Counted from the first letter of the stretch, positions 27,686 to 50,348 are shown. The stretch: 64,000 nt of DNA from Planctomycetota bacterium (GCA_021413705.1 JAIOPX010000077.1:12026-76025); one strand, 5' to 3'. Made by a program: numbers and translations. The notes: generated by a model from the sequence alone, not told the origin.

Positions 27686-28282
27686 CTATGATACTGCCGC
27701 AGGAACGATGGCTTGTTGATAATGGCGGTTGATGAGGTCGTTTTGTAGCCAGAGTAGTTTGTTGAAGGCACGCAACGTCTGCACTTCCAACGCTCGCTCC
27801 AATCCGAGGCCCAAGATCGTGTTCGTTAGGGCATCCGCTACAAAGCCGAGCAAGGCATTCATTTGTACCAGTGGTACGTTGAGTTCTTTGGACCCGGCCT
27901 TCGGAGTGTGCATCTTGCCGACCCCATCGAGATAGGTAACCATCTTGGCGTCGTAGGGTTTGGTGACGAGTGCCGCTAGGTAGCGAGCCAGATGAGCTTT
28001 GCGAAAACGGATCATCTCATGGTCGGGCGTGACTTCTTCGAGACTCGTCGGCACAACCCCCTCGTACCCGAACTGCCTGGGCAGGAAGTGCCTCCAGGTT
28101 GCGTCGTAGCGGTGAAGTTTGTCGTACACGGCATCCACTAATGTCGGAACGAGTGGGGCAATAACGGGTGCAGCACCGTGAATCGCCGCCACGTCCTCCT
28201 CCCCAAATCCCATGAATTCGACGAGGTATTCAAAGCGATAGCCGAGGTCGGATTCCAGGCGTTGTTCGTTAATTTGGATCAT
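27686..28282 (-). CDS. stand-alone protoglobin-family protein
   Basis: The ATG at 28282 is preceded by GGAG. LGYRFEYLVEFMGFGEEDVAAIHGAAPVI...LWLQNDLINRHY resembles the protoglobin / globin-coupled-sensor globin domain. No output domain. Confidence 0.65.
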   Translation of the reverse strand: MIQINEQRLESDLGYRFEYLVEFMGFGEEDVAAIHGAAPVIAPLVPTLVDAVYDKLHRYDATWRHFLPRQFGYEGVVPTSLEEVTPDHEMIRFRKAHLARYLAALVTKPYDAKMVTYLDGVGKMHTPKAGSKELNVPLVQMNALLGFVADALTNTILGLGLERALEVQTLRAFNKLLWLQNDLINRHYQQAIVPAAVS

Positions 28283-28377
28283 TTGTGGCTCCTGGCAGGC
28301 AGGTTGACGCTGGGCGCACTTGAGCAGATAATCGGACATCAATATCCATTTTGAAGTCAAGATATATTCGCCCATAA

Positions 28378-28393
28378 TGGATGTCAAGGTCCA
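28378..28393 (-). promoter_or_regulatory. Rrf2/NsrR-type operator candidate overlapping the -35 box of the protoglobin-qNOR promoter
   Basis: The minus strand reads TGGACCTTGACATCCA. TTGACA, a 17-nt spacer and TATCTT follow in the direction of the ATG at 28282. It is near-identical to the site at 45064..45079. Confidence 0.5.
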
Positions 28394-28419
28394 CGTTTAG
28401 GGCTTGGGGGGACAGTCGT

Positions 28420-28863
28420 ATGTTTTCGCAGACCGTCGAGTACGCCTTGCGAACCGTCGTCCATTTGGCCGACCAGTCGCCCTCGCCTCGGACCACCGAC
28501 CAGATTGCGACGGCCACCCTAGTTCCCAAGGCTTACTTGTCGAAGGTGATTCAGGGATTATGCCGTGCCAACATCTTGCAGTCGAAGCGTGGCATCGGCG
28601 GTGGAATTGCACTGGTGAAATCACCGTCCAAATTGACCATTCTCGAAGTCGTTAATGCCGTGGAACCGATTGCCCGCATTCGAGAATGCCCGCTCGGCTT
28701 AAAGACCCACGGAGTACGTCTTTGCCCCCTCCACAAGCGTATGGACAACGCCTTGGCGATGGTCGAAGCGGTGTTTCGGGAAACTACGCTGGCCGAGGTC
28801 TTGGCTGAGCCGACCCACAGTCATCCGTTGTGCGAGTTGCCTACGAGAAAGAAATCCCGTTGA
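28420..28863 (+). CDS. Rrf2-family transcriptional regulator (NsrR-like)
   Basis: MFSQTVEYALRTVVHLA...SKRGIGGGIALV plus the three-Cys cluster motif C..GLKTHGVRLCPLHKR. Divergent from the qNOR operon. Confidence 0.85.
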   Translation: MFSQTVEYALRTVVHLADQSPSPRTTDQIATATLVPKAYLSKVIQGLCRANILQSKRGIGGGIALVKSPSKLTILEVVNAVEPIARIRECPLGLKTHGVRLCPLHKRMDNALAMVEAVFRETTLAEVLAEPTHSHPLCELPTRKKSR

Positions 28864-29135: not shown

Positions 29136-29553
29136 GACACACCTCCTTGGGCGTTTGACCCGTTCTCGTCCATTGGAAGAAAGGGGCAAAGCCCATGCCG
29201 TCGCTGCCGAACTCGGAAAAGTATGCCCCTGCAGGGGTATTCGGAGGACGTCTAGCCTGATCGCGCAAACCTTTCCGAAGTCGCTAGCATGGCCCTGCCA
29301 AATGACGGTGTGTCTGAACAGCGCACATGAGCGGCCACAGGCCGCGCGCTCCGCACATAGTTCATGAGGCGGCGCATTCACCGCACAGTGTCTCCGCTCA
29401 ACTCCGACCAGAATGCACCATGGAAGCGCCGCCTTCGTCACGCTCCAAGGTCCCTCTATTCACTAAGTGTGCCAAGCTGCACGCGTGCGGTAAAATGAGG
29501 GCCCCAGACCGGTCAGTTTGATCAAGGTTCCTCGGTGTAACGCGAGGTGCAAT

Positions 29554-29802
29554 ATGAAGTTCATGGTTCAATTCCGACTTAATCCTGGCAGCAAGAAAAA
29601 AGCGGTGGAGAGCTTTGAGCGAATGGGACCGAATCGCAATCCCGGCGTGGCCTTTCGCGGAGCGTGGATCGCAGTGCGATCCGACGTGGTCTTTGTTTTG
29701 ACGGAGAGCGACGACGAGGCACTCGTGGCAAAGGTCTCCGAAATATGGAGCGAATACGGGGACTGCCAGATTCACCCAGTGATCGACGTCGAAAACTTCT
29801 GA
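29554..29802 (+). CDS. DUF3303-like small protein
   Basis: MKFMVQFRLNPG...GVAFRGAWIAV..DVVFVLTESDDEALV...WSEYGDCQIHPVIDV fits the DUF3303 pattern as I recall it. Confidence 0.55.
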   Translation: MKFMVQFRLNPGSKKKAVESFERMGPNRNPGVAFRGAWIAVRSDVVFVLTESDDEALVAKVSEIWSEYGDCQIHPVIDVENF

Positions 29803-30076: not shown

Positions 30077-31639
30077 TCAGAAGTTCATCTGGTACTGGAC
30101 GTACGCAAAATCCGCATCTCCGGTAAATGGAGGAGGCGTGGGATTCGTGCTATACCAGGAGCCCGTGAAGTAGTGAGAGTAACCGAACAGCCAACTGGTA
30201 TGCGGCGTCATGTTCCAGGTCGCCAGGAAATCCAGTTCCTGACCTAGATACCGGCTGCCCCCCGGTGTGGTGACAAACGGCGTGCCGTTGATTCGGTACG
30301 GCACATCATTGCCATTTTGCAGGTGAAAGATGTGCCACCACAGCAGCAGTTTCCAGTCCTTCCGCGGCTGCATCTCCAATTGAAAATTCAGATCCTCGAT
30401 ATTCGTCCGGGCGTAGAAATCCATGAAGCCCAGATACTTGTGACCGAGCGGAAAGTTTTGATTAAATCCGTTCCCAATGGTGTCATCGCCGGAGGCCCAA
30501 TCGTAGTAGGCCCACAACGTCGGCTTCCAGCAGTCTTCCCGCAGTTGACGGCCGCAGCCAAGCGTGAAGAAACCGGCTGAATGCGACATGTCGCCAAACG
30601 CGCCAAATTGATAGCCCCCTTCCACCTCCCCCAGCCAGCCGCAGTATGCGCCCTTCCATCGGCCGCCGACGGTCTCGAAAGCAAACGTGCGTCCTGCCTG
30701 GAACGGCGAGTCGTAGTCGTGATAACCGATCCAGTAGAGGTCGTAGACGTGTCCCTCGTGCCCCTTGTAGGTTCCCCACAGCGCATAGAACTCTTGGGTT
30801 CCATCGGGGGAATTGAGGCTTTCCGGTTCGCCGAAGATGGGGCGCACCCAGAAGCCATCGACGTTCCAGTCACTGCCGCGATAGAAGAGCTTGGCGCCGT
30901 CAAACGTGCGGCGCGTGTTGGCCCAGTCCAGCGGAGAGATCAATCGCTGCGAACCATAGAGCAGCTCCTGGCGACCGACACGTCCCCAGATGTCGCCATC
31001 GCAGGTGTCCCATACCCGCGCATCAACGAACAGATTTTGTATCTCGTGCGGGTCGTGTTCGATGGCCCGCGGCGGAAAATCGTCGAAGTCGCTGTTGGCC
31101 GACAAATATTCGGCGTAGCAGCGCAGCCAATCATTGACGTGCCAATCGGCGTACAGCCGCATGCGACGCAAAAGAAAATCGTCTGATAAGCCGGTCAGGC
31201 CCAGCCCCCGCATATTTTGTTCGTCCTGGAAGCGGAGGCGATATTGTCCGCCGATGTCGAGCACACCGGAATCCTCGCAGGCGCGGAGCTGTTTGAGCCT
31301 CTCTCCTAAATGCCAACCGTCGTAGCACGGGTCGTTCAGATACTTAAAATCGTTGTCGTAGAACGGATCCTTGTAGGCCGCGGCCGCAGCCGCCTTGAGG
31401 GCAGCCAGTTTTTTCGGCGGACAAGGTACGACGCTTCCATCGTCGGCCCCTGACTCACTTTCCAGCGCCTCACTTACAAGCTGAAAGGGTGCATTTTCTG
31501 CCATGGATCCGGAAATCTGTTCCGGCTCCGGGGGTCCGCCACCAAGAGACTGCTCTGCGCGAACAACAGGAGCCCTGCTGACCTGACAGGCCAGGACCAG
31601 GGCGATCACCCAACCGAAGGGGCGCAACGACGGGCGCAT
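30077..31639 (-). CDS. outer-membrane beta-barrel, alginate-export-like family
   Basis: Signal peptide MRPSLRPFGWVIALVLACQVSRA (start 31639). DIGGQYRLRFQDE and alternating aromatic-rich strands ending in ...YVQYQMNF. Confidence 0.55.
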   Translation of the reverse strand: MRPSLRPFGWVIALVLACQVSRAPVVRAEQSLGGGPPEPEQISGSMAENAPFQLVSEALESESGADDGSVVPCPPKKLAALKAAAAAAYKDPFYDNDFKYLNDPCYDGWHLGERLKQLRACEDSGVLDIGGQYRLRFQDEQNMRGLGLTGLSDDFLLRRMRLYADWHVNDWLRCYAEYLSANSDFDDFPPRAIEHDPHEIQNLFVDARVWDTCDGDIWGRVGRQELLYGSQRLISPLDWANTRRTFDGAKLFYRGSDWNVDGFWVRPIFGEPESLNSPDGTQEFYALWGTYKGHEGHVYDLYWIGYHDYDSPFQAGRTFAFETVGGRWKGAYCGWLGEVEGGYQFGAFGDMSHSAGFFTLGCGRQLREDCWKPTLWAYYDWASGDDTIGNGFNQNFPLGHKYLGFMDFYARTNIEDLNFQLEMQPRKDWKLLLWWHIFHLQNGNDVPYRINGTPFVTTPGGSRYLGQELDFLATWNMTPHTSWLFGYSHYFTGSWYSTNPTPPPFTGDADFAYVQYQMNF

Positions 31640-32115
31640 GCTGGGACAAGTCCTTTTGTCCGATGTGGGGGATCTGCAATACCAGGAGTTAATTCGACCG
31701 TGAACAGGCGGTTTTCCAGGCAAGAATTTCCAAAGCGGCAAAGTCAGCGTAAAAGGTACATGAATGACGCCGAAGGGGCCGTGAGTTTGACGCCTAAGGG
31801 CGACTTGGCACAGCAGCAGGCACCGTCTGAGCGAAATCGCTCATACGGGAGTTGAGGGCCGCTGCCATGGAAGCGGCCGCGGGTGAAAATGCACGGAGGG
31901 ATTGTCGTCGTATGCGGCAACCTACTATACTCTCCGCGGCACATGTGGCAGACGATAATTTTGCCAATGATGCTGCGGTCTTGTCTCGTTACGTGTCCGT
32001 TTTTCTTTCAGGCTGTAGTGGTTGCGGTGGGTCGGACGGAATAGGCTCCAAGGCTGGCTTTCGCAACGCGACCGACCTGATAAACATCCCGTGCAACCGC
32101 CGGGACGGTTTGCAA

Positions 32116-32637
32116 ATGTCGGAATCGCCATCATCTCATCCTGACGATTCGCGCGGGAACTCCCGTCGTCGATTCTTGTTTCTGATTCTCCCCTGGGGGA
32201 TCGTCGCTGCTGCGTACGGCACGTTGGCCGCGTTGGCGGTGCGGTTTCTCTTTCCGAGCCAGCGCCGTCGCCAGGACTGGCAATTCGTGACCACCACGGC
32301 TGAGTTGAAGACGGGACAATCGCTCACGTTTACGTCACCTGACGGGTCGAAGATCGTGTTGGCCCGGCAGCGGGATGGCGACGAACAAGATTCGTTTATT
32401 GCGCTGTCGAGCGTTTGCCCCCACCTGGGTTGTGCAGTGCATTGGGAACCGCACAACAACCGTTTCTTCTGTCCCTGTCATAACGGGGCTTTCGATGCGG
32501 CCGGCGCGCCCACGAGCGGCCCGCCCGCCAAGGCGGGTCAGCCTCTGACTCGTTTTCCCCTGCGCGTGGACCGTGGGCGGTTGTTCATTCGCGTGCCGCT
32601 GGAACGTGTGACGGAGTCTCGTGAGAGGACGGTCTAG
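32116..32637 (+). CDS. Rieske [2Fe-2S] subunit of a cytochrome bc-type complex (Tat signal)
   Basis: SRRRFLF twin-arginine motif. CPHLGCAV...CPCHNGAF Rieske boxes. Start at the ATG at 32116. Confidence 0.85.
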   Translation: MSESPSSHPDDSRGNSRRRFLFLILPWGIVAAAYGTLAALAVRFLFPSQRRRQDWQFVTTTAELKTGQSLTFTSPDGSKIVLARQRDGDEQDSFIALSSVCPHLGCAVHWEPHNNRFFCPCHNGAFDAAGAPTSGPPAKAGQPLTRFPLRVDRGRLFIRVPLERVTESRERTV

Positions 32638-32707
32638 GCCACGCACAGTAAATCCTGGAATGCAAAAATCAGGCAATAGCCCGCACATTTCGTGAGGTTC
32701 ACGGCTT

Positions 32708-33757
32708 ATGGCAGGACTGGCACAATGGTGGGCGCAGCGCGTGCCCATCTCCGGCGAGCAGCTTCGAGAGCTGACAAACGAGCCGGTTCCCAACCACCTG
32801 AAGCGGTGGTGGTTCTGCCTGGGTGGGACGCCGGCCTATCTATTCGTGGTACAGATTGTCACGGGCATCCTACTGGCTTTTTACTATCAGGCCTCTCCGC
32901 AATCGGCCTACGAATCGGTGCGGTACATCACGGAAGAGGCCAGCTACGGTTGGTTTTTTCGCAGCCTGCATCGGTGGTCGGCCACGCTGATGATCGCGGC
33001 GGTGATTCTGCACCAGATGCGGGTCTACTTCACCGGCGCCTACCGCAAACCGCGGGAATTGAATTGGGTGATCGGGATGTGCCTGCTGATGTGCGTGCTG
33101 CTGACCGGCTTCACGGGCTACAGTCTCGTGTTTGAGCAGCTCAGTTACTGGGGGGCCAATGTGGCCGCGAACATCTCGAATTCCGTTCCCCTGTTCGGCA
33201 CCGCCCTGAAGCAATTGCTGCTGGGAGGCGAAGCCTACAATGCGCATACCCTGTCCCGATTCTACGTGCTCCACGCGGCCGTTCTGCCGGGGACGATGAT
33301 TCTCCTGCTTTTCGTGCATGTCACGCTGATTCGGCTGCACGGAGTGAGCGATCTTAAGTTTGCCGATGAAGCACCTGACCAACCTCAACACTTCAATTTC
33401 TTTCCAGACCATCTCCTCACGGAGATCATGGTGGGGCTGGTCCTGATGCTGATCCTCTGCGCGCTGGCCACGCTCGTGCCGGCGCATCTGGGGCAGAGGG
33501 CCGATCCGCTGACGACGCCGGAAGTGATCAAGCCCGAATGGTATTTCTACGTGACGTTTCGGTGGCTCAAGCTGTTTTCACTGAGCTTCGCGGTGCTGAG
33601 TATGGGGCTGATCGTCGCTGCGATGTTCATTTGGCCGTGGATTGACATGCTGTTGCGGCGGATCACGGGTCGTGAAGAGGCGAGCGTTTATATCGGCATT
33701 GTGGCTACTTTGTTGTTGATCGGTTTCACAGTCTGGGAAGCGGTCGTCGCGCATTAA
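32708..33757 (+). CDS. cytochrome b (b6 + subunit IV-like fusion)
   Basis: FYYQASP..AYESV..I......GWFFRSLHRWSA and the PEWYF motif (KPEWYFY), with multiple TM helices. Confidence 0.9.
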   Translation: MAGLAQWWAQRVPISGEQLRELTNEPVPNHLKRWWFCLGGTPAYLFVVQIVTGILLAFYYQASPQSAYESVRYITEEASYGWFFRSLHRWSATLMIAAVILHQMRVYFTGAYRKPRELNWVIGMCLLMCVLLTGFTGYSLVFEQLSYWGANVAANISNSVPLFGTALKQLLLGGEAYNAHTLSRFYVLHAAVLPGTMILLLFVHVTLIRLHGVSDLKFADEAPDQPQHFNFFPDHLLTEIMVGLVLMLILCALATLVPAHLGQRADPLTTPEVIKPEWYFYVTFRWLKLFSLSFAVLSMGLIVAAMFIWPWIDMLLRRITGREEASVYIGIVATLLLIGFTVWEAVVAH

Positions 33758-33805
33758 CGGTCCGTTATTTTTCTCCTTGTCCTTTGTCTTTGAAAGTATC
33801 GACCC

Positions 33806-34237
33806 ATGTCGCTTCGCACCAAACAATGGATTATCGCGGTTCTGGGTTCCGCCTTCCTGGTGTCACTGCTTTTTGTCCAGTGGCGTGAGGTCGCGCGCGT
33901 CCGCGAGGAGGCCGGTTTGGTGCCTCCCCATATCGCCGTCCCGGCCAGTTCGGAGTCGTGCGTGAAGTGCCATGGCGAATCCTCTCCAGGCATCATCGAC
34001 CATTGGAAGGGAAGCACGCACGCTGTGAAGGGAGTGGGCTGTGTCGAATGTCATCAGGCAGACGCCAAGGACGCCGACGCCTTTGAGCATTATGGGGCGA
34101 CGATCGCCACCGTCGTGACGCCACGCGATTGTGCCCGTTGCCACGTGAATGAGGCGAACGAATTTGCCCACAGTCACCATGCCCGGGGAGGAAACATTCT
34201 GGCCTCGCTGGACAATACCCTGGCAGAGGTGGTGTAA
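33806..34237 (+). CDS. HAO-family octahaem cytochrome c, N-terminal fragment (haems 1-3)
   Basis: TM anchor followed by CVKCH...W.GSTHA, VGCVECH and CARCH. These align by eye with haems 1-3 of Nitrosomonas HAO (CVECH..W..STHA, VGCIDCH, CGTCH). It ends at TAA 34235..34237. Confidence 0.75.
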   Translation: MSLRTKQWIIAVLGSAFLVSLLFVQWREVARVREEAGLVPPHIAVPASSESCVKCHGESSPGIIDHWKGSTHAVKGVGCVECHQADAKDADAFEHYGATIATVVTPRDCARCHVNEANEFAHSHHARGGNILASLDNTLAEVV

Positions 34238-34246
34238 GGGGCTAAA

Positions 34247-35431
34247 GTGCCGTTCAATCCGCACTCCCCCACGCCAGGCATGACAGTCGATAAGGTCAAC
34301 GGCATGGCCAGCGTAAACACGGGGTGCAAACAATGCCACGGAGGCAAGGTGGGCCTGCAGAAGTCGGACGGCGGTATGCTTACCGTGGACGATTTGAAGC
34401 CTGGCGCGGATGGCAAACCCACGCAGGAAGATCTGCTGGCGTTGGTGGCCCGGGACAAACAGGGGCGTCCACTGCTGCATCCTGATACTTGGCCGAACAC
34501 AGGCATAGGTCGGATGAATCTCGATGGCTCGCTGGGTTCGTGTTCCGCCTGCCATTCGAGACACGATTTTTCACCGCGGCGGGCTCGGCAGCCGGAAAAC
34601 TGCGCCAAGTGCCACCTCGGTCCGGATCATCCGCAGAAAGAGATCTATGAAGAGTCGAAACATGGGGTGGCTTTTCGAGACTTGAAGGACAAGATGAACC
34701 TGGATGCACACCGCTGGGTGCTGGGCAAGGACTACAGTCAGGCGCCCACTTGTGCTACGTGTCACATGTCGGCCAACAAGCTCAACGGCGAGAAAGTTAC
34801 GCATAATCCCGGCCAGCGCATCTCCTGGACCAATCGACCGGAGGTGAGCCTGGTCATGGATACGGACGCCAAGGGCGAGGTCATCAAGGAAACGGATCCC
34901 GCCAAGCGTCGTGACCTGGTGAAAGACACCTGGCAGGACAAGCGGATGCGAATGACCCAGGTCTGCATTCATTGCCACACGCCGGACTATGTCAGTGCGT
35001 TCTACAAGCAATACGACGATTTCGTGATCAACTACAATGAGAAGTTTGCCAAGCCGGGACAGAAGATCATGGCCGCCTTGCGGCAAGACGGCCTGCTGAC
35101 GCCCAAGCAGTTCGATGAAAAAATCGAATGGACATGGTTCTATCTGTGGCACCACGAAGGTCGCCGCGCGCGGCACGGCGCTTCGATGATGGCGCCGGAC
35201 TATGCCCACTGGCACGGCATGTTCGAGGTCGCGGAGAGATTCTATAAGGAATTGATCCCCGAGGCCCGTGAACTGGCCGAAAAGGCCGAACACAACGGCG
35301 GCAAGGCGGAACATACACGGGCCGCAATCCGCGACATACTGGCCCGCCCCGAACATCAATGGTTCGAAGCCGCGAAGGCCGACGGACTGAAGCCGGCAAC
35401 GCCTCCACCGCCGAAGTCTGAAGAAAAGTGA
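34247..35431 (+). CDS. HAO-family octahaem cytochrome c, C-terminal fragment (haems 4-8)
   Basis: Same reading frame as the previous ORF. GCKQCH, CSACHSRHDFS....PENCAKCH..PDH....Y..SKHG, APTCATCHM and CIHCH parallel HAO haems 4-8. The track start is a GTG 3 codons after the TAA. Confidence 0.75.
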   Translation: MPFNPHSPTPGMTVDKVNGMASVNTGCKQCHGGKVGLQKSDGGMLTVDDLKPGADGKPTQEDLLALVARDKQGRPLLHPDTWPNTGIGRMNLDGSLGSCSACHSRHDFSPRRARQPENCAKCHLGPDHPQKEIYEESKHGVAFRDLKDKMNLDAHRWVLGKDYSQAPTCATCHMSANKLNGEKVTHNPGQRISWTNRPEVSLVMDTDAKGEVIKETDPAKRRDLVKDTWQDKRMRMTQVCIHCHTPDYVSAFYKQYDDFVINYNEKFAKPGQKIMAALRQDGLLTPKQFDEKIEWTWFYLWHHEGRRARHGASMMAPDYAHWHGMFEVAERFYKELIPEARELAEKAEHNGGKAEHTRAAIRDILARPEHQWFEAAKADGLKPATPPPPKSEEK

Positions 35432-35473
35432 GCTACCTGGGGGGAGCAACTCGGAGGCAAGGTCCGAGCTTGG

Positions 35474-35953
35474 CTACAACTCAACGGTGGCCAGGACGCG
35501 CACCGACATTCCGGGGGACAGCATACCGACCCGGACAACGGCGGCCATGTATCCAAATCTGCCAACGACCACTTCCTTCAAACGTGGATCGATGGCGTCA
35601 AGTACGTAACAGGGCTTGCGCGGTTGGGTGAGCTGCAAGACCACGTCGCCGATTTTCAGCAGTGTTCCCGGCTCCAGGTGCTGAACGTCGAGTCCCTCCA
35701 CCGTCAGGTTCTCACCCGCGGCGCCCGGCGAGAGCGCGAATCCTTCTCCGATCAATTGTCGCATGATTTCAATATCCCACAGGCAGACCGCTCGATCGGG
35801 TCGGCAGTGCTTGGCGTGCGCGTGCGCATCGCCATCAAGGCCGGTTTCGGTTACCCGGGCCAAGGGTTGAGGTCGCTTGGGGATGCCGCCGGGTGAGCGA
35901 CAGACAGCGATGACCGCGGGAGCATCTTCAAGTCTCTGGTGCATAACCGTCAC
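35474..35953 (-). CDS. MOSC domain protein (YiiM-like)
   Basis: GENLTVEGLD......GT.L.IGDVVLQLTQPRKPCYVLD is the MOSC signature with the conserved Cys. Confidence 0.75.
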   Translation of the reverse strand: MTVMHQRLEDAPAVIAVCRSPGGIPKRPQPLARVTETGLDGDAHAHAKHCRPDRAVCLWDIEIMRQLIGEGFALSPGAAGENLTVEGLDVQHLEPGTLLKIGDVVLQLTQPRKPCYVLDAIDPRLKEVVVGRFGYMAAVVRVGMLSPGMSVRVLATVEL

Positions 35954-36020: not shown

Positions 36021-36824
36021 CTACTGCGGGCCAAGCTGGCAGCCTTCACACTCCTCAGGCCGTTCGACCGAACTGGGGGCAGCGCCCACTCTGGGATGTT
36101 CAATGCCGCACAAGCTCCGTTCGGCCGCTATCAAGGCGCCGAGCAAGACGCCGACTGCTTCATAGTATCCACCAGGATTTTCGCGCCCTAACAAGCGGCC
36201 GAACGCCGGGGCCCACCAGGCCAGATGCTCGTGGAGAAACCGTCGGGCGGCATCGCGACAGATGGCGGCGCGTTGGGCACCGCCCTGATCGCCGCATTCC
36301 GCTGCCCGACGTTCCAGTCCCAGCAGGAATGCCATGAACTCCAATTCCAGGACGATATGGTCGTGCTGCTCACGGCGCTGCGGGGACGGTTCCAGGCCGA
36401 ACGCCTGATAAAACCCGCTCACGTCAGCCAAAGCGTGCGATCTCTGAAAGGTGAACTTGCTGTTGATGTAGTCCGTTTCATGTGGCGGACAGGTGCTGCT
36501 GGCCAAGAGTCCGAAAGTGGATTCAAACAGCTCATTCAGTGCGTGACGCGACGCAGGGAGACGGGCGACGACCGGGGCCGGATTCAGCTCCTCTAAGGGC
36601 TGCTCCCCGAGGGCCAACTCCGCTGACGCGGCAGCCGCTTCGTTGCGCAGTAAGTCGGCCGCGTCGTTCAGGAGCGAATTGTTTGGTAGCGACGTCAGCT
36701 CGAGCCAAGCGCCGGCCCGTGGATCCGCCAGCGCCATGGCGATGAATCGATATAGGATCTGCCGTGCCTGGCTGACGGCAGGATCCCAGGCCACCTCAAC
36801 CCGTGCATTGTCGATCGTGGTCAT
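36021..36824 (-). CDS. TorD/NarJ-family redox-enzyme maturation chaperone (delta subunit)
   Basis: It lies at the distal end of the molybdoenzyme operon. The helical protein carries a YR.IA.AL..P pattern and EFMAFL block typical of NarJ/TorD/EbdD-like chaperones. Confidence 0.6.
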   Translation of the reverse strand: MTTIDNARVEVAWDPAVSQARQILYRFIAMALADPRAGAWLELTSLPNNSLLNDAADLLRNEAAAASAELALGEQPLEELNPAPVVARLPASRHALNELFESTFGLLASSTCPPHETDYINSKFTFQRSHALADVSGFYQAFGLEPSPQRREQHDHIVLELEFMAFLLGLERRAAECGDQGGAQRAAICRDAARRFLHEHLAWWAPAFGRLLGRENPGGYYEAVGVLLGALIAAERSLCGIEHPRVGAAPSSVERPEECEGCQLGPQ

Positions 36825-36845
36825 AGCTGTTGCTTTCGTTGGAAT

Positions 36846-38141
36846 TCAGATCGAGTTGACGTGCTCTGCCGCTGGCCGCTCGAAGGTCGGCTCCTCGACC
36901 GTCACACGGACTACTTCTTCGCCAAGTTTGTTGTAGCCGATGACCGTATCATTGAAGATTTCCTGGGTCTTGCTGCTGCCATCAGGCATGGTCACCTGCA
37001 CCTCAGCGACCTTGGGCCCCTGTTTGATTTCAAAACGAAAAACGATCTGTTGGCTCGCGCGGAACAACTGCAATACGGCGAGCAGTTCACGGTCGGGACA
37101 GCTGTATTGCTCGATGGCGTGTTCCACGCCGGGACCGAACATCTGGACCAGGTAGCCGCGAGGCACCCAGCGGGGCGGGATATAGAAGCCGTTCGGCTCC
37201 GTGCCGAATTGCGGGTAGAGTGGCAGAGCAATCTTCCGCTCTCGGATCAAATAGTACAGCGGGTTCTGGGGATCCTTGGCCCACGTGCCGTCCTCGGCGA
37301 TTTTCACCAGTCCTTGCAGCCGGATCTTGCCGACGCAGGCCGCCATACAGCGCGTCTCGGCGGGAGCACCGGTGGGACTGATGGTGGGATCCTTCCCTTC
37401 GATCCGGGGGTAGCAGCCAACGCATTTTTCGCTGGTCCCGGTCGTCGGCCGATACATCGCCTTCTTATAGGGGCAGCCTTCCACGCACTTGCGATAGCCG
37501 CGGCAACGGCTCTGATCGATCAGCACGATACCGTCCTCGGGGCGCTTGTAGATGGCGTTGCGAGGACAGGATCCCAGGCATCCCGGATAGGTGCAATGGT
37601 TGCAGATTCGGGCCAGATGAAAAAACCAAACTTTATGCTCGGGGAGTTGCGTGGAGGCACCAAATTGTTCCGCACGCTGGAATGTGCCCCCGGTGGCCGT
37701 GTCTTCGTGGATGTTGGGACTCCGCCACTCATCGTCGGTCGGCAGGTAGCCCAGCGCCTGTTGCGGGCCGTCGGGGCCGGGCTTCTTCTGCGCCGCCTCG
37801 AAGATCGTCAGACCCTCGAACGTGCCATAGGGCTTGCGATCCGGTTCGGCTGTAGACTTATTCCAGACCTGCTGGCCGGGGTTGGCCTCTTCAAGCATCG
37901 CGAGCAGCTTCGCGTCCCAATGTTGAGGATAACCGCCGTAGGGTTTGGTTTCGACATTATTCCACCACATTAATTCCTGACCCTTGGAGAACGTCCAAGT
38001 GCTCTTGCATGCCATGGTGCAGGTTTGGCAGCCGATGCAGCGATTCGGATTGAAGACGAAGGCAAACTGCCATTTCGGGTGCCGTTCTTCATGCGGATAA
38101 CCCATTTCCCGCCCGAGCTGCCAGTTATAGACGTTGGCCAT
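36846..38141 (-). CDS. Fe-S beta subunit of a type II DMSO-reductase-family enzyme (NxrB/NarH-like)
   Basis: CIGCQTCTMACK, CNHCTYPGCLGSCP, CRGYRKCVEGCP and CVGCYPRIEG. MWWNNVETKPYGGYP block. 431 aa. Confidence 0.88.
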   Translation of the reverse strand: MANVYNWQLGREMGYPHEERHPKWQFAFVFNPNRCIGCQTCTMACKSTWTFSKGQELMWWNNVETKPYGGYPQHWDAKLLAMLEEANPGQQVWNKSTAEPDRKPYGTFEGLTIFEAAQKKPGPDGPQQALGYLPTDDEWRSPNIHEDTATGGTFQRAEQFGASTQLPEHKVWFFHLARICNHCTYPGCLGSCPRNAIYKRPEDGIVLIDQSRCRGYRKCVEGCPYKKAMYRPTTGTSEKCVGCYPRIEGKDPTISPTGAPAETRCMAACVGKIRLQGLVKIAEDGTWAKDPQNPLYYLIRERKIALPLYPQFGTEPNGFYIPPRWVPRGYLVQMFGPGVEHAIEQYSCPDRELLAVLQLFRASQQIVFRFEIKQGPKVAEVQVTMPDGSSKTQEIFNDTVIGYNKLGEEVVRVTVEEPTFERPAAEHVNSI

Positions 38142-38153
38142 GGTCGCCTTTCC

Positions 38154-38525
38154 TTACGCGTTAGGCGGCAGTGTAATCTGCACCAGCCGCTCGGAGAGCG
38201 GTTGACTGTGCGTGGTGGTCACTCTCACAACTCCGCAGCGCGCCAGGATCGCCCTGATCCGCTCTTTCAGCGGCTCCTCCCCCAAGAGCCTCCACAAACC
38301 GTGGAACCCCGTATAAAAAGGGTCGCGGGACAGTGTCATGAGCGCGTCGAGCCCATTTCCCATCCGGGCATATTCCTCGACCAGCAGGCGCAGCATCAGT
38401 TCCGGGTCACCATCGACCTCGACACCGCTGAGTTCCAGAGGATCCTCCGGCAGCATCTCGCGCGAAACAGGATGCACCTTGGGCCCAATGTTGTTCAGAT
38501 CATCTAGCATGACACTGCTCCCCAT
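38154..38525 (-). CDS. small hypothetical protein between the alpha and beta subunit genes
   Basis: 123-aa ORF, tightly packed (20 nt after the alpha stop, 12 nt before the beta start). No signal peptide or motif recognised. Confidence 0.5.
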   Translation of the reverse strand: MGSSVMLDDLNNIGPKVHPVSREMLPEDPLELSGVEVDGDPELMLRLLVEEYARMGNGLDALMTLSRDPFYTGFHGLWRLLGEEPLKERIRAILARCGVVRVTTTHSQPLSERLVQITLPPNA

Positions 38526-38545
38526 GCGATTTCGTCACGTTCGGG

Positions 38546-41500
38546 TTATTCTTTGATCTTGATCAGCGCGCCGGTCAAATACGCTTCACTCTCGGGCGTC
38601 TTTTCACCTGGACTATAGCCGCTCTGCCCCGGCTTCCAGACGCCCACCCCGTCCAGGCCGCCACTTTCCGCCTTGGTGATTCGGACGAGCGTTTCTTTCG
38701 GCACCGTGTTGATGGCGTGGTTGTCGATATCCGCACCAAAGGTGAACGCCATACTGCCGGTCTTCTTGTGAAACAGGCTATCCGTCTGGTGCATGGGCAT
38801 CATCCAGTTGCGGGTGATGCTTTGATGCGAGCCATAGCGGTAGCTGGCCTGGTAACCGGTTTCCGCAGACAGGGCACGGCCGTCGGCGCGGGTTTCATGG
38901 GCGCGCACGGTTCGTTCCGTGGCAATCCAGCCCGTGTGCTTCATGATCGTGAACGTGTAGGGGAGCCCCGGATTGAGCTTCACGCGGACCATGCAGCGGA
39001 AGGCTTTATGGCGCGGACCTTTGTCGTCTTTCCAGCCGATGTAGGGGCGATCCAGTTCATTGGCGTCGACGTAGACATAGTCCCCTTCATGCAGTCCCAG
39101 GTCGGCGGCCGCCTGGGGGTTCATCTGAATCTGTCGATCCGCCACGCCTGGCGCCCGCTTGTCGGTGCGGTGCGGATCGCCAAAGTTATCGCTCCACAGC
39201 CAGTGCCAATCGACGGTGGACCAGGATGAGTGGGTCGAATGGCGGCTCTTGGGTGTGCTGCAGAAGAATTGATATCCCTGCTTCCAAAGCGGGTTGACGG
39301 TTTGCTTGACCTCCGCCCAGGGCAGCTTGACGTTGCGCACTTGGCGCAAGTCAGGATCAGCCGTGTCGGCCGGAATACCAAAGTCAGCGGGTCGCACAAA
39401 TGGGCTGGTAGAAACGATGACGTTCGGCAGATAGGGAGTCGCCTCGACTCCTTCGCGGTGGACGATCAGGTTTTCGCCATACTCGATAGCCTCGGGCAGA
39501 TCGCAATAGCTGGCCAGCCGCCCGCAATCCGTGTAGAACGGGATGGAATCGTGTACTTGCTCCCAGAACGGTACGCGCGGGTAGGTGCGAAACAGCATCA
39601 GTGCCGCGCCGGGCTCGCCTCCATATTCTCCGGCAATCATCTTGTCGACCTGATAAGGACCGTCCTTGCCGCGCGTCGTCGTGGAATTGTCAAAGACACG
39701 TTGCAGATAGACTTTGGCCTTTTTCTCCGTAACAAATTTGAAATAATCGGCGAACCGGCGATCGCCGGTCTTCTTCGCCAGGGCACGGGCGACGCCGGCG
39801 AACACTTCAGCGTCGTCCACCGAATCGTGAACCGGCTTGATGCCTCCCTTCCAGACCTGGATGAAGGGATTCGAGCAGGAGCCGCCGCATTCGTAGTCCT
39901 CCTGCTCGACCCAGGAATTGACCGGCAGCACCACGTCGGCGTATTCGGCGCTGCCGGTCCATTCGATCTGTTGGTCGACGATCATGTCAACTTTAGGCAG
40001 CACGTTGACAATGATATTGTAGATCCACTTAGACTGGTTCAAGAAGTTGGCGTTGTTGTACCAGATCACCTTGGTGGGGGTTGGCAGGTGCGTCTTGCCA
40101 GTGAAGTTGCGACGGCCGCCTTTGGGCAAATCGACCGTCGTCGTCCTCTCTCCACAGGCCCAGTAAGACGGATCCTCGCCATCGCTCAGGTGTCGCAGAT
40201 GTTCGTGCGTGATTCGCGTTGCTTCGTCGAGGACGGGATGGAAAGGATCTTCATGCGTGTAACTGCCGACTCCCGGCCCGCTCCAAGGGGAGGCCTGCAT
40301 CAGCGCTCCCTTGTAGTTGCCGGCCCAGGTGAAGCAGCCGGCACCATGCCGGCCGATGTTTCCGGTGAGCATCACGGGCAGGTAAGCGGCTCGATTGTGG
40401 AGGGTGGCATGGAAATAGTGGTTGACACCTTCACCGATGTGGATCGCTACGGGATGGCCTGCCTCGGTCGTTTTCCAGATGTCCTCGGCCAAGCGACGGA
40501 CCAGATGTGCGGGCGCGCCGGAGATCTCCTCGACCGTTTTTTCGTCGTAGTCCCGCAAATGCCGCTTATACATTTCCAGGATCGGCATCACTTCAACCTG
40601 GCGACCGTCGGCGAGTTGGACCTGGTAGGTTCCTTCCAAGGCGGCCGCCACATTCAAATTCTTGCCTACCTCATCACGGCTGATGAAGACCACTCGCTTG
40701 CCAGCGGTGTCCCACACACAAAAGTCGCCGATGCGCCGCCGCTGTGAATCCGTCAGCCCCTGGATTTTGTAGGAGGGACCGGCCGAGATGTCCTTGGGGC
40801 GATAGCCGGCCATCACGTCCTCGGGCCGCAGCCTGCGAAGCGTATCGGTTCGCACGAGCAGCGGGAAATCCGTGAACTGGCGGCAGAAATCTGGTTTGTA
40901 CCAGTGGTTGTCGAGCATGATTTTCGTCACGCCCAAGAGTACCGAGGTATCGCTTAGCCCCGGCCGTACGCCGATCCAGTAATCACTCTTGGTGGCCGGG
41001 CAGTTGTATTCCGGGGCGATGTCCACCAGTCGGCCGCCGCGCTCCATAACTTCATTGAGCCAATGCGACTCGGGCATCTTGTTTTCGATCAGGTTCTTGC
41101 CGATTTGGATCACCAGCTTGGAAAACCGCAGGTCATTGAAATCCATGTCGGCGGTCTGCAAGCCATGCACAAACGGCTGCCCGGGCGCCTGGTCGCCGCG
41201 CCAGGTGTACTCGTTCCAGTCGCGCGCGCCGTGCGCTTTTTCTGCCGGCACGCCGCGGACATGATGATCCAAGAGTCCCAGCAGGTTGGCGAAACGATAG
41301 ATGCCGAACTTCCCCACGATGCCGTGGATTGGCAAGTTGGAGCCCATCTTGATCACGCGTGTGCCGGCCCCTTCCACCTTGTCGATCATCACCTGCTCGT
41401 AGCCGTCGCGCTTCAGTCGCTCGACACCATCAGCGCCGCTGTACGTGCGGGACACCGCTTCCAGACCGGCCGCCACATAGTCGGATATCTCCCCCCAACT

Positions 41501-42016
41501 GAGCCGCACATAGCCATCGTTGCCCCGGTCATCGAATTTGTACTTGCTCCGGAGTTCAGGGTTCTCCGAAAGCGAGGGGAACCCGGCGTCGGCCCAATCC
41601 TTCCATCCTTTGCGCAATACCGGGCCCTTCAGCCGGTACGGGCCATAGACCCGCCGTTGCATGGTAAATCCCTTGGGGCAGCCACGAGGATTCCAGGCCT
41701 TGGTGGCCTTGTTGCCATACAGATCGCCGTAGCGGTCATGATCGTAATTTTGCTCGCTGCGAATCATCACGCCGTTGCGGACATACGCTCGCAGCCGGCA
41801 CATGTGCGTATCGTTCGGAGCGCAGACCCAAGTAAAGGTCCGGTCATAGCGGTACTGATCAAGATAAATCTTCTCCCAATCGCGGCTGGGATAGGCGCCC
41901 AGTGGGCTTTCACCGCTGACAGGAGCGAACGCCCAGCCCTGCGCTCCCTGAGCCAGCAACACGCTACCGCCGGTAGCCGCGCAAGATTTCAGGAAGTGAC
42001 GTCTTGAGATGGTCAT
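38546..42016 (-). CDS. molybdopterin alpha subunit, Tat-exported (NxrA / periplasmic NarG-like)
   Basis: MTISRRHFLKSCAATGG..AQGAQGWA is a Tat signal (start 42016). VCAPNDTHMCRLRAYVRNGVM is the N-terminal Fe-S region. About 1156 aa, larger than Pcr/Ser/Ebd alpha subunits. Confidence 0.88.
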   Translation of the reverse strand: MTISRRHFLKSCAATGGSVLLAQGAQGWAFAPVSGESPLGAYPSRDWEKIYLDQYRYDRTFTWVCAPNDTHMCRLRAYVRNGVMIRSEQNYDHDRYGDLYGNKATKAWNPRGCPKGFTMQRRVYGPYRLKGPVLRKGWKDWADAGFPSLSENPELRSKYKFDDRGNDGYVRLSWGEISDYVAAGLEAVSRTYSGADGVERLKRDGYEQVMIDKVEGAGTRVIKMGSNLPIHGIVGKFGIYRFANLLGLLDHHVRGVPAEKAHGARDWNEYTWRGDQAPGQPFVHGLQTADMDFNDLRFSKLVIQIGKNLIENKMPESHWLNEVMERGGRLVDIAPEYNCPATKSDYWIGVRPGLSDTSVLLGVTKIMLDNHWYKPDFCRQFTDFPLLVRTDTLRRLRPEDVMAGYRPKDISAGPSYKIQGLTDSQRRRIGDFCVWDTAGKRVVFISRDEVGKNLNVAAALEGTYQVQLADGRQVEVMPILEMYKRHLRDYDEKTVEEISGAPAHLVRRLAEDIWKTTEAGHPVAIHIGEGVNHYFHATLHNRAAYLPVMLTGNIGRHGAGCFTWAGNYKGALMQASPWSGPGVGSYTHEDPFHPVLDEATRITHEHLRHLSDGEDPSYWACGERTTTVDLPKGGRRNFTGKTHLPTPTKVIWYNNANFLNQSKWIYNIIVNVLPKVDMIVDQQIEWTGSAEYADVVLPVNSWVEQEDYECGGSCSNPFIQVWKGGIKPVHDSVDDAEVFAGVARALAKKTGDRRFADYFKFVTEKKAKVYLQRVFDNSTTTRGKDGPYQVDKMIAGEYGGEPGAALMLFRTYPRVPFWEQVHDSIPFYTDCGRLASYCDLPEAIEYGENLIVHREGVEATPYLPNVIVSTSPFVRPADFGIPADTADPDLRQVRNVKLPWAEVKQTVNPLWKQGYQFFCSTPKSRHSTHSSWSTVDWHWLWSDNFGDPHRTDKRAPGVADRQIQMNPQAAADLGLHEGDYVYVDANELDRPYIGWKDDKGPRHKAFRCMVRVKLNPGLPYTFTIMKHTGWIATERTVRAHETRADGRALSAETGYQASYRYGSHQSITRNWMMPMHQTDSLFHKKTGSMAFTFGADIDNHAINTVPKETLVRITKAESGGLDGVGVWKPGQSGYSPGEKTPESEAYLTGALIKIKE

Positions 42017-42064
42017 GTCAGTTGTTCCTTGAACCATCCTGCCTGACGGCCGTATTGCGGCTCC

Positions 42065-43792
42065 TCAGTGGGGTGGCTTCTCCAAAAGCAAATCCTGCCA
42101 GATGCTGATCAACTTCTGTCCGTTGCGGTCGCGATGATCCCCATCCCAGACTGCCAGCGCAATCGAGGCCCGCTCACCCGGCACCAACGACACGCCGGAT
42201 GCTCCCTCAACGACGAGCGGGCGCGTCATCACGACGGTCCAACGACCCTCCCGCCATTGCCCGCGGGCGGTCACCAGGCGACTCTTCGGCAACCGGAACG
42301 CCACGCTTCCCGGCCCGCTGGCCGTGAGCGACGAACTGCCGGATGCACCGGCGGCCGGCACAACAGGGTTGCCGCTGGCCTTGGCCGGCAGCGAAATATC
42401 GGGTTGTTCCTTCCGCTGCGTGCCAGGCCGCTGATATTCGGCGGTGGAAACGGTTTTTTCGCTCAACGGATATTGATCCACCACGGTGCGAGGATAGATC
42501 TGCTCGACATCGGGCGGGCCGGTCGGCGGTTCCGCCTGCCAAAACCACACGTCAACCGGCGCGTCGGTCGAGCCCATCCCCAGAAATGGCTCGACTGTGC
42601 CACGGTACAACTCGACTGCGATCGCATCGCGGAACGCCTGGGTGCGGGCCGCGTCGCTGTTGGATGTCGCATCCTGCCAGCGGAGCCGGATGGCAATGTC
42701 GCGTCCGTCGTGGACCGCTTGCACAGTCAGCCCGGGATCAGCGTCATCGCGCCACCACAGCGGTGTCATTCGTAGCCGCACCGCAGGACTCATCTCCCAT
42801 TGCGACGAGGCCTGATCTCCGGGCAGTTTAGCAACATACTTGGCCACAATTTGCTCACGCTTCAATAGCGACGCTTCGCGCTGTGCATCGGTGGAGAGCG
42901 ACCGCAGAAAATTCACGAGATCGGTTATCTCTTCCGGTTTAAGGTTGGCACTGGCGGGCATGGGAGTACCGGGCATCCCTAGAGCGATCCGACGATAGAA
43001 GGAGGTTGGGTCCGGGCTCCCCTTGTAAATGCCACGGGTCAAATCGCGGGGGCGTGTCGGCAATCCCTCCGCGTCAACCATCTTCTGCTGCCCATCTCCG
43101 CGCCCTTCGTTGCCATGGCACGAATGACAACTCTGCTTGACATACAGCTCCTTGCCGCGAGCGATACTCTTGGCATCCGGGGGGCCGATGGCCGGCACGG
43201 CGAATACCGCGGCGGGCAGGGTGCGGTTCTCGACGAATTGTTTGACTTCTTGCTCGTCAATTTGCTCTTCCCCCTGCTCCTTCAGGGTACGGATGATTTC
43301 TTCACGCGCGCCCTCGCGACGAAATCGCAACACTTCATCCACCAGCAGCGATCGATCCCGCGGGCTCAGATGGGCCCAGGAAGGCATAGCCGATCCGGGC
43401 ATTCCTCGCACCAACATCGCCTCGATATCCTCCCGAGATGGCACGCCGTTGACCGTGCTGACAAGCCGGTAAGGACTTGCACGGAGGTTGCGTGGCTTGG
43501 GGTAGATAAATCTGGCGGCCAGACCCTGCCCGTCTCCTTGATCGCCGTGGCACGCCGCACAGTGCCGGGTGTAGAGTTCGGTAGCGGTGAGAGGTTTGGT
43601 GGCCACAGCTACAGGGACCGCAGTTTCTCCCGAAGTTCGCTGTCCGCCGACCCCAGCATCACCCCTCGTCGTGTCCTGACGTGGGGTCGGTGGGGGAGCG
43701 GATGGTTGACAGCCGACAGCCATCCACGCCAGGAATGCGCAGATCATGAACTCAATTCTGTCGCGTTTGAGTCCTTCCGCCATCATTCCCAT
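42065..43792 (-). CDS. gamma subunit: lipoprotein with two cytochrome c domains fused to an EB_dh/DOMON-like haem-b domain
   Basis: The lipobox-like WMAVGC is followed by CAACHGDQGDG and CHSCHGNEGRG. The C-terminal ...IALAVWDGDHRDRNGQKLISIW is typical of ethylbenzene-dehydrogenase gamma-like domains. Confidence 0.75.
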   Translation of the reverse strand: MGMMAEGLKRDRIEFMICAFLAWMAVGCQPSAPPPTPRQDTTRGDAGVGGQRTSGETAVPVAVATKPLTATELYTRHCAACHGDQGDGQGLAARFIYPKPRNLRASPYRLVSTVNGVPSREDIEAMLVRGMPGSAMPSWAHLSPRDRSLLVDEVLRFRREGAREEIIRTLKEQGEEQIDEQEVKQFVENRTLPAAVFAVPAIGPPDAKSIARGKELYVKQSCHSCHGNEGRGDGQQKMVDAEGLPTRPRDLTRGIYKGSPDPTSFYRRIALGMPGTPMPASANLKPEEITDLVNFLRSLSTDAQREASLLKREQIVAKYVAKLPGDQASSQWEMSPAVRLRMTPLWWRDDADPGLTVQAVHDGRDIAIRLRWQDATSNSDAARTQAFRDAIAVELYRGTVEPFLGMGSTDAPVDVWFWQAEPPTGPPDVEQIYPRTVVDQYPLSEKTVSTAEYQRPGTQRKEQPDISLPAKASGNPVVPAAGASGSSSLTASGPGSVAFRLPKSRLVTARGQWREGRWTVVMTRPLVVEGASGVSLVPGERASIALAVWDGDHRDRNGQKLISIWQDLLLEKPPH

Positions 43793-49646: not shown

Positions 49647-50348
49647 GACAACAGCAGGGACCCATGATGACCGCTGTTGAAGCCGGTGACCGACGAATTG
49701 TTCTTCAACTCGGACCAGGGGTACTCTTGCAGTAACCGGCCCAATCGGACCAGACCCGTTCCTGATGGGCCGATTGGGCCCATTTGCGTACACGGTGGAT
49801 GCTGTCCCCGGAAATCCTTGCTTGTACGCCCGCGGCCAATAGCAACGATGCCGAAGTTTGCCGCAGGTCGTGGAAGCGGATTCCCAAATGCTCGTTTAAC
49901 AGGGCTGCCAACCCAGAGATTCTCTGGCGCTCCACAGAACGAGTGCCGTGTGATGCGGTCGGCAACAAGACCGCGGAGGCGAGAATCAAGCCGCACCAGA
50001 CACCGAAATTGTCGGTCGGCAAAGCTAGGCGGCCGTACCAGGTGGTTATGCCGCAGTTGGCAGGAATCTTTAGGTCAACCTGTCACCGCCAGATTTTCAG
50101 CACGTCGCCAGTAATCGGGTGTGTACGTCACTTCGGACGATTATTAAGATGCTCGAACTGGCCATGAAGCACCTCGGGCTGATCGTGGCCGACCCGAAGC
50201 TGGCAAACCAGTACAATCTGAGTCTCGACGCCACGACCTCGGATAACTTCTTGGCCACCTTGCTGAAGCAAGTCGAGGAGACGCGCTCCAGGAACGTAAT
50301 CGATTCACGGACGATAGAAAGCCGGACCAATGGAACACTATGAGCCAT
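49643..50348 (-). pseudogene. frameshifted tyrosine recombinase
   Basis: IRFHDLRQTSASLLLAAGV (HxLR box) lies in frame 49705..50022. An N-terminal core-binding-like piece is in 50097..50348 and the C-terminal piece is in a third frame. At least two frameshifts. Confidence 0.55.

Follow-up and report, generated by a model that had tools for sequence, protein, structure and literature searches.

Which protein accepts the electrons of a Rieske/cytochrome b (R/b) pair when no cytochrome c1 or f gene stands beside it, and what would that protein do with them? The question is raised by a three-gene cluster in a 64,000-nucleotide (nt) stretch of DNA from a Planctomycetota bacterium (GCA_021413705.1 JAIOPX010000077.1:12026-76025), here called the window. 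The cluster encodes a Rieske protein, a fused cytochrome b6/subunit IV and a membrane-anchored octahaem protein of the HAO family, whose window copy is interrupted by a stop codon. The original prediction, made from this DNA alone, had read the arrangement as a link between the quinone pool and hydroxylamine, nitric oxide (NO) or nitrite chemistry outside the anammox bacteria. With a probability of roughly 0.6, we consider the module to be a b6f-like quinol-oxidising complex in which an anchored octahaem protein of the reductive (epsilon-Hao-like) type replaces cytochrome f/c1 and reduces nitrite. The module is of a known but biochemically uncharacterised kind, and the window holds a further member of it.

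An HAO-family octahaem gene follows the Rieske and cytochrome b genes

The cluster was delimited from open reading frames (ORFs), their translations and Pfam matches (Table 1). As predicted, the genes for a Rieske protein exported by twin-arginine translocation (Tat), a fused b6/subunit IV and an anchored HAO-family protein follow one another with short gaps, 70 nt from the Rieske to the cytochrome b gene and 48 nt from there to the HAO gene. No monohaem cytochrome c1/f gene was found within or adjoining the cluster by ORF and Pfam analysis, and nothing resembling a hydrazine synthase was seen among the Pfam-annotated ORFs of the window (several ORFs have no Pfam match), which agrees with the prediction on both counts. 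The arrangement is not due to chance, because 81 of 81 related loci with sufficient contig show the identical gene order. Scans of positions 31500–35800 for promoters, terminators and inverted repeats gave nothing above the shuffled expectation and no recognisable operator.

The third gene, at the place of c1/f, indeed belongs to the HAO octahaem family. It scored 90.8 bits against PF13447 (cut-off 21.9), and its sequence matches in the PDB were IhOCC (4QO5, 8e-41), Kustc0458 (6H5L, 1e-25), NeHAO (5e-21), HDH (3e-16) and HOX (6e-14). Eight CXXCH motifs are present in the joined window frame and in 66/66 homologues, and the eight columns are invariant in an alignment of 54 sequences. The fold was judged from P0001, an intact, 93%-identical homologue, and not from the interrupted window sequence. 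The AlphaFold2 model of P0001, built with the 54-sequence alignment (pLDDT 91.8, pTM 0.85), shows a helix at residues 3–35. The top 11 Foldseek matches of this model were all HAO-family proteins (4QO5 with E 3e-21 and TM 0.65, then 6H5L, NeHAO, HOX and HDH), and ONR and NrfA appeared at E > 0.03 only.

The N-terminal helix is followed by charged residues, with no signal-peptidase motif by eye, and its residues I10, L13, F17, S20, L21 and F23–W26 are invariant in a 10-sequence alignment. An uncleaved anchor helix was found in the R/b-linked proteins examined (P0001, P0284 and P0285); the N-termini of an NrfH-linked Desulfobacterales protein and of Nautilia epsilon-Hao are signal-peptide-like.

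The C-terminal part of the window protein holds the motifs GPDHPQ and PDYAHWHG. By alignment, GPDHPQ matches GVDHNN of NeHAO, and the Asp-His pair that follows haem 6 (Asp267-His268 in NeHAO, Asp274-His275 here) is kept. CHLGPDHP occurs in 66/66 homologues and SWTNRP in 61/66; on visual comparison of RWANYP with SWTNRP, Tyr334 of NeHAO is replaced by Arg344. With the pocket pair and the haems kept, and with a ratio of nonsynonymous to synonymous substitution rates (dN/dS) of ~0.02–0.03, the octahaem subunit is probably catalytic and not vestigial.

The octahaem protein is of the reductive type

The Tyr in MMAPDYAHWHG had been put forward as a possible counterpart of the cross-linking Tyr of oxidative HAOs. 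The numbering and sequence of NeHAO were verified against 4FAS, in which Tyr467 sits in GGWTYTEGW. Two MAFFT alignments of ~70 members, and a comparison of the family hidden Markov model profile with the PDB, placed Tyr467 opposite window His468, and a third MAFFT run placed it opposite Trp469, the column shifting by one residue between alignments. Window Tyr466, the residue in question, pairs with Trp465 of NeHAO, a Trp of IhOCC and a Val of Kustc0458, and never with Tyr467. The matches to NeHAO, HOX and HDH in a pairwise PDB search with the C-terminal 150 amino acids (aa) did not extend to the Tyr region.

The same motif occurs, as SPDYAHWHG, in the eight-haem protein ACM93230.1 of Nautilia profundicola, which falls into the 50%-identity cluster P0184; according to its genome paper, the Nautilia Hao lacks the critical tyrosine (PMC2628731). 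Four epsilon-HAOs that lack this Tyr reduce nitrite and hydroxylamine and barely oxidise hydroxylamine (Ferousi et al., PMC8042395). Having no Tyr at the cross-link position and sharing its motif with Nautilia epsilon-Hao, the window protein is of the reductive type. The Tyr of MMAPDYAHWHG is, as judged from these alignments, a conserved residue of reductive enzymes and not the cross-link residue.

A phylogeny had been proposed as a check, and neighbour-joining trees (100 bootstraps) gave a mixed answer. The protein falls inside the HAO family, within a radiation of 69 sequences (bootstrap 100) that includes epsilon-Hao and IhOCC and excludes NeHAO, HOX and Kustc0458; it thus belongs to the reductive radiation, not to the NeHAO/HOX group. 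Within this radiation, whose deep nodes are weakly supported, the window protein and the characterised epsilon-Hao lie in different subclades.

The Rieske and cytochrome b subunits resemble those of b6f complexes

The window Rieske protein carries CPHLGC...CPCHNGAF, that is, the CxH...CxxH signature with two extra disulfide Cys, and these motifs are conserved in its homologues. It is 80% identical to the product of a 173-aa gene at the matching position in L001, the locus of the closest relative, and its best solved relatives are the PetC proteins of b6f complexes. For the cytochrome b, the solved relatives are cyanobacterial b6 (3e-52), with a tail like subunit IV (4e-8). Because both PF00033 and PF00032 match, we regard it as a fused b6/subunit IV. 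The ligands of haems bL and bH are H88-x13-H102 and H189-x14-H204. The Qo motif is PEWY, found in 7/64 homologues, with PEWF in 49/64. WWFCLGG of the window protein aligns with YCLGG of b6 at the haem ci Cys, and the window's own CxGG Cys is thus the predicted residue for covalent haem ci; in the homologous cytochromes b (genes of the L001–L081 set) this Cys is present in 43/64 and is Ala in 18/64.

Likeness to b6f and other 'green-clade' complexes therefore lies in a b6-like cytochrome b, the H-x14-H of helix D, CxGG, the PEWY of the subunit IV part and a PetC-like Rieske protein. In contrast to b6f, b6 and subunit IV are fused in 349 aa, an octahaem protein stands instead of cytochrome f, and CPCHNGAF of the Rieske protein lacks the Ser/Tyr of high-potential clusters. 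We take the last feature to mark a low-potential, menaquinol-type Rieske centre.

The gene order is conserved across hundreds of species

Relatives were sought in one genome per GTDB species. Close relatives of the octahaem protein were found in at least 346 GTDB species, and the best 80 are almost all from Planctomycetota metagenome-assembled genomes (MAGs) of the Pirellulales and Planctomycetales. The planctomycete synteny screen that had been recommended was carried out: the cytochrome b gene is directly upstream of the HAO gene in 81/81 closest loci, and the Rieske gene precedes it wherever the contig reaches that far. The Rieske-cytochrome b-HAO order recurs in a clade at 52% identity (L082/L083). 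In a Vicinamibacterales MAG of a 67% clade (L084), the order is COX2-COX1-Rieske-cytb-HAO-NapA-NapB-porin-NapD.

A second scan, seeded with the 52% clade, gave at least 596 relatives among the matches listed. Outside the closest set, 74 more distant loci of about ten other phyla were compared, and in 51 of them a cytochrome b gene immediately precedes the HAO gene; the wider set includes Calditrichaceae, Bacteroidales, Chlorobiota, Acidobacteriota, Gemmatimonadota, Binatia, Phycisphaerae and others. Among the more distant clades, one has no quinol module nearby, and in a Desulfobacterales clade a tetrahaem gene of the NapC/NrfH type stands in front of the HAO gene. A tblastn search with one NrfH query found no NapC/NrfH homologue in the wider set of loci. 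The alternation of NrfH-type and R/b-type neighbours across the family supports R/b as the quinol dehydrogenase module.

In the planctomycete set, the cluster is most often followed immediately by a co-directional NapA-like gene (15 of the 52 loci with enough flank), with NapB after NapA in 11 loci of the set; the other 37 of the 52 have no nap gene downstream. Recurring neighbours are Rrf2 regulators (at least 9 loci), protoglobins, AlgE-type porins and NXR-like genes, and the L001 flank carries hemerythrin and ScdA. The gene trio is thus found in at least several hundred species of many phyla, and its breadth and the anchor feature appear to be under-described.

Several loci (L015, L017 and others) carry a planctomycete-type gene, 70–73% identical, under the labels Kuenenia, Polyangiaceae, Chitinophaga, Methylibium, Chlamydiae or Krumholzibacteriota. 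Errors of binning or labelling are the probable source of these names, which would then not be those of the true hosts.

Comparison with known systems

The original prediction associated such a module mainly with one of the anammox bc complexes. The species counts above and the precedent of Caldithrix abyssi argue otherwise. The genome of C. abyssi, which ammonifies nitrate, has a nap-Rieske-cytb-epsilon-Hao cluster (Cabys_2564-2556), whose R/b part was proposed as the electron donor for nitrite reduction by epsilon-Hao (PMC5317091). Here too, Rieske, cytochrome b and epsilon-Hao-type octahaem genes are adjacent, there is no monohaem c1 gene, and nap is linked. That cluster is known as a genome annotation only, and its authors treat epsilon-Hao as periplasmic, possibly served via NapM (PMC5317091); the window protein, in contrast, has an uncleaved N-terminal anchor and NXR instead of Nap as its neighbour. 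An uncultured Calditrichaceae locus (L172) has cytochrome b directly upstream of the HAO gene and NapA nearby. C. abyssi is the only published pairing of R/b with epsilon-Hao that we found, and planctomycete bc operons may have been described earlier elsewhere. Planctomycetota MAGs with nxr-like genes, norB and hao have been reported (PMC10732223) and are the source of three of our loci; we found no mention of an R/b linkage in that paper.

Nautilia epsilon-Hao (ACM93230.1) shares with the window protein the eight haems, PDYAHWHG and GPDHP, and is 33% identical to P0001 (3e-73). Campylobacterota epsilon-Hao differs in its signal-peptide-like N-terminus and in its proposed quinol dehydrogenase of the NapC/NrfH/cM552 type (PMC2628731), whereas the window protein is anchored and has Rieske and cytochrome b genes as partners, with no partner of the NapC/NrfH type.

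The anammox R/b-3 complex (Kuste4569-4574) is documented, with nitrite reduction as a proposed role (PMC12954380, PMC12485887). In R/b-3, as in the window cluster, the last gene of the R/b operon encodes an HAO-family octahaem protein without the cross-link Tyr, and the cytochrome b is of the b6 type with CxGG. In a Brocadiaceae genome (L169), the operon encodes a Rieske protein, a 586-aa NAD(P) oxidoreductase-like protein, b6 (256 aa), a 240-aa subunit IV-like protein, a hexahaem cytochrome and P0355, the orthologue of Kuste4574. P0355 (581 aa) shares just 24% identity with P0001 (E 1e-18) and clusters with Kustc0458 (100% bootstrap); its N-terminus looks like a signal peptide, and its anchor is C-terminal. 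The NAD(P) oxidoreductase, the split b6 and subunit IV, and the extra multihaem cytochrome are absent from the window, L001, L082 and L084. Between the window cytochrome b and the anammox b6, identity is 36% (b6 part only), and the anammox subunit IV gave no match. The parallel with anammox thus does not extend to orthology: with 24% identity, separate clades, and a different anchor and operon, the two modules are, on these sequence comparisons, analogous and not orthologous.

IhOCC of Ignicoccus hospitalis (4QO5) is the best solved match by sequence (8e-41; profile 1e-107) and by fold. It is, however, archaeal, 27% identical and of a separate clade, with Asp-Val in place of Asp-His behind haem 6 and with Trp/Thr where the motif stands. 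Qcr-dependent periplasmic nitrate respiration in bacteria was reportedly the subject of work by Garg et al. in 2018, an entry in the reference list of PMC6896113.

The octahaem gene of the window carries a premature stop

The 'joined' octahaem protein of the original prediction stands in part: the eight motifs lie in one frame, but the window gene is interrupted by an in-frame TAA and does not encode the intact protein. The stop falls after haem 3, where L001–L003 have GAG or GAA, and is derived by a single G-to-T change with no indel. Glu occupies this position in 9/9 aligned homologues. The listed homologues (n = 120) are uninterrupted and 525–590 aa long, save one 441-aa partial match. As written, the frame yields a 143-aa anchored trihaem fragment and a 394-aa ORF with no export signal. 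Such an ORF product could not receive haem, so that the trihaem stub would be the sole product if the stop is real.

Against L001, whose HAO-family protein is 93% identical, dN/dS is 0.028 before the stop, 0.023 after it and 0.031 for cytochrome b (dS is saturated). With a value of ~0.02 downstream of the stop, the nonsense change is either very recent or a sequence error. A dead or dying locus in this organism, in which the TAA is real and just the stub is made, is possible, though we hold it to be somewhat doubtful. A TAA where nine aligned homologues all have Glu, in a family of unbroken genes, is what it would produce; selection downstream of the stop, however, resembles that upstream, no further defects were seen, and a lone substitution might stem from a fault of assembly or consensus calling or reflect a minority variant. 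The long genes nearby are intact (NxrA, 1163 aa; qNOR, 753 aa). From its sequence, the octahaem copy of this organism would be inactive or very recently inactivated, unless the TAA is a sequence error. A dead copy here is compatible with the function proposed below for the family. The stop limits the value of the window itself.

Programmed recoding was rejected, given a TAA at a Glu codon and uninterrupted listed homologues, and so was a functional split gene, as the 394-aa ORF lacks an export signal and hence haem. Antisense ORFs inside the cluster (e.g., 34571–35449, minus strand) were considered spurious; the plus-strand frames are under strong purifying selection.

Proposed function and alternatives

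The most likely function of the module is the electrogenic reduction of nitrite (hydroxylamine/NO) with menaquinol, and Nap or NXR may receive electrons from it as well. We infer that the three subunits physically assemble, and with this the substrates, the products and proton translocation. Menaquinol would be oxidised at the Qo site (PEWY). One electron would pass from the Rieske cluster along the haems of the octahaem protein to the five-coordinate haem 4, where nitrite, and probably NO and hydroxylamine, would be reduced; ammonium is the most likely product and NO a possible one. The second electron would return via haems bL and bH (and ci) to the Qi site. With the second electron recycled through the b haems, nitrite reduction would be proton-motive, unlike the NrfH/NapC-type coupling of the distant relatives. 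The linkage to nap, and in the window to NXR, suggests that the haem chain also supplies nitrate reductases; it would probably feed periplasmic enzymes, NapAB in many relatives and an NXR-type enzyme in the window.

Several points weigh against a menaquinol:nitrite reductase of this kind. Its product would be ammonium or NO, and sequence cannot decide which: the closest characterised relatives (epsilon-Hao and IhOCC) make ammonium, Kustc0458 makes NO, and NO reductase genes, which lie near the cluster in the window and may do so in L084, keep NO a possible product. The replacement of Tyr334 by Arg344 makes the pocket not identical to that of any characterised enzyme, and the Ala in 18/64 cytochromes b indicates that the haem ci part is not general in this clade. 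HAO-family enzymes are trimers and R/b complexes are dimers, a mismatch for docking. AlphaFold 3 failed for the anammox analogue (PMC12954380). Finally, the members of the module are known from genes and sequence alone, and the window's own octahaem gene bears a stop codon.

A broader proposal is that Rieske/cytochrome b/epsilon-Hao-type modules of Planctomycetota, Acidobacteriota, Gemmatimonadota, Calditrichota, Bacteroidota and other phyla constitute a distinct class of energy-conserving quinol:nitrite oxidoreductase that forms ammonium or NO. We advance it tentatively, at slightly less than even odds; if true, the trimeric HAO fold must be reconciled with the dimeric R/b core. HAO-type nitrite reduction tied to a Q-cycle would then conserve energy, unlike NrfH-dependent NrfA, and would bear on the question of which organisms ammonify nitrate, or form NO, in soils, sediments and waters. 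Global surveys of ammonifiers are in some cases limited to nrfA and onr (PMC10716430), and surveys of nitrate ammonification that count these two genes would miss the module. The three-gene cluster also offers a simpler system for how an HAO-family enzyme docks on an R/b core, a question that arises equally for anammox R/b-3 (PMC12954380).

Among the alternatives at the level of function, the octahaem protein might be an electron wire that replaces c1/f and passes Rieske electrons to NapAB, NXR or oxidases, its active site having no physiological substrate. Multihaem cytochromes do replace c1 in other 'green-clade' complexes, such as the hexahaem protein of anammox L169, and the NapA genes directly downstream in 15/52 loci, the one-query tblastn result for NapC/NrfH and the haem-copper oxidase genes directly upstream in L084 would all suit a wire. 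We consider it unlikely, as the Asp-His pocket pair, needless for a wire, is kept in 66/66 homologues, 37/52 loci have no downstream nap gene, and the characterised relatives of the radiation are enzymes (PMC8042395).

Less probable still is nitrosative-stress defence, that is, scavenging of NO and hydroxylamine under an NsrR-type Rrf2 regulator instead of energy-conserving respiration. The Rrf2, protoglobin, qNOR and RIC/ScdA genes of the window, Rrf2 genes near the cluster in at least 9 loci, and hemerythrin and ScdA in L001 fit such a role. As a source of electrons for detoxification, however, a Q-cycle complex would be elaborate, the NapAB genes that often share the operon favour respiration, and no operator site was identified.

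An oxidative hydroxylamine/hydrazine dehydrogenase that delivers electrons to quinone in the manner of nitrifiers and anammox bacteria has family membership and the source annotation 'hydroxylamine dehydrogenase' in its favour and is very improbable, since the protein has no cross-link Tyr and belongs to the reductive radiation, at a distance from NeHAO, HOX and HDH, the R/b complex would have to run backwards, and no amo or hzs genes were seen. Porin-cytochrome extracellular electron transfer through the adjacent AlgE-type porin, whose gene is divergent from the Rieske gene in the window and L001 and nearby in 10/81 loci, is equally improbable: the anchor of the octahaem protein lies in the inner membrane, the adjoining genes encode no multihaem partner for the periplasm or outer membrane, and in most loci the retrieved flanks contain no porin.

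Genomic context of the window

The non-anammox context that had been predicted is supported by the threonyl-tRNA synthetase of the window, which is closest to those of Pirellulaceae MAGs, at just ~60%, and the surroundings are rich in nitrogen-oxide genes (qNOR, NXR, Rrf2 and RIC; Table 1). Together with qNOR, protoglobin, Rrf2, RIC/ScdA and NXR genes, the cluster forms a nitrogen-oxide island of ~20 kb. The NXR-type operon is complete, in a non-anammox planctomycete. Its NxrA matches Kuenenia NXR-A (7B04) over the full length with 1499 bits; the NxrC-like protein fuses two cytochrome c domains and an EB_dh haem b domain, and the 123-aa ORF has no Pfam match.

Table 1. Features of the window, with positions counted from its first nucleotide.
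Feature	Position (nt)	Strand	Evidence or content
tRNA-Val	4795-4869		
Phage-type integrase	4993-6264		
AAA_25 protein	8623-10698		
Family A DNA polymerase	10937-13252		
Schlafen/AlbA_2 protein	20651-21568		
qNOR, 753 aa	25381-27642	-	Pfam
Protoglobin	27686-28387	-	Pfam
Rrf2-family (NsrR-like) regulator	28381-28863	+	Pfam
DUF3303 protein, between Rrf2 regulator and porin	29518-29802	+	
AlgE-type (Alginate_exp) outer-membrane porin, divergent from Rieske gene	30077-31741	-	PF13372 4e-67
Rieske [2Fe-2S] subunit, Tat-exported, 173 aa	32116-32637	+	PF00355 1.8e-12; SRRRFLF twin-arginine motif
Fused cytochrome b6/subunit IV, 349 aa	32708-33757	+	PF00033 1e-53, PF00032 7e-9
HAO-family gene, whole frame	33806-35431	+	PF13447 90.8 bits; eight CXXCH; N-terminal hydrophobic helix
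HAO-family gene, N-terminal part (signal-anchor helix, haems 1-3)	33806-34234	+	CVKCH, CVECH, CARCH
In-frame TAA at conserved Glu codon	34235-34237	+	Translation, homologue alignment
HAO-family gene, C-terminal part (haems 4-8)	34238-35431	+	PF13447 1e-25; CKQCH, CSACH, CAKCH, CATCH, CIHCH
MOSC-domain protein, convergent with HAO gene	35474-35953	-	PF03473 5e-15; also matched in L046
Periplasmic NXR-type operon: NarJ-like, NxrB, 123-aa ORF, Tat-NxrA, NxrC-like	36021-43792	-	Pfam
RIC/ScdA iron-centre repair protein	45196-45972		Pfam
777-aa protein, nearly all ankyrin repeats	50338-52671	-	14-15 repeat matches
Type I restriction-modification system	53532-61756	-	HsdR 53532-56657, DUF4268, HsdS 58816-60201, HsdM 60191-61756
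DUF559/REase-like protein, after HsdM	62406-63896		

The AlgE-type porin gene has counterparts at the matching position in L001 (6342–7865), in the flanks of 10/81 loci, and after NapB in L084 (10603–12147); the barrel may be a putative nitrate/nitrite anion channel. In L084, the COX2-like (158 aa) and COX1 (539 aa) genes, of the haem-copper oxidase type, lie at 2203–4295, directly upstream of the Rieske gene on the same strand. MOSC/mARC enzymes reduce N-hydroxylated compounds, and by analogy a candidate role of the window MOSC protein in hydroxylamine handling is conceivable. A DUF3303 gene is also found a few kb from the anammox R/b-3 operon (L169:16378-16800), which may be a coincidence.

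No att repeat of the tRNA-Val 3′ end that would bound an element was found. The region from 4795 to ~22000, which in addition to the genes in Table 1 contains many ORFs with no Pfam match, resembles an integrated mobile element.

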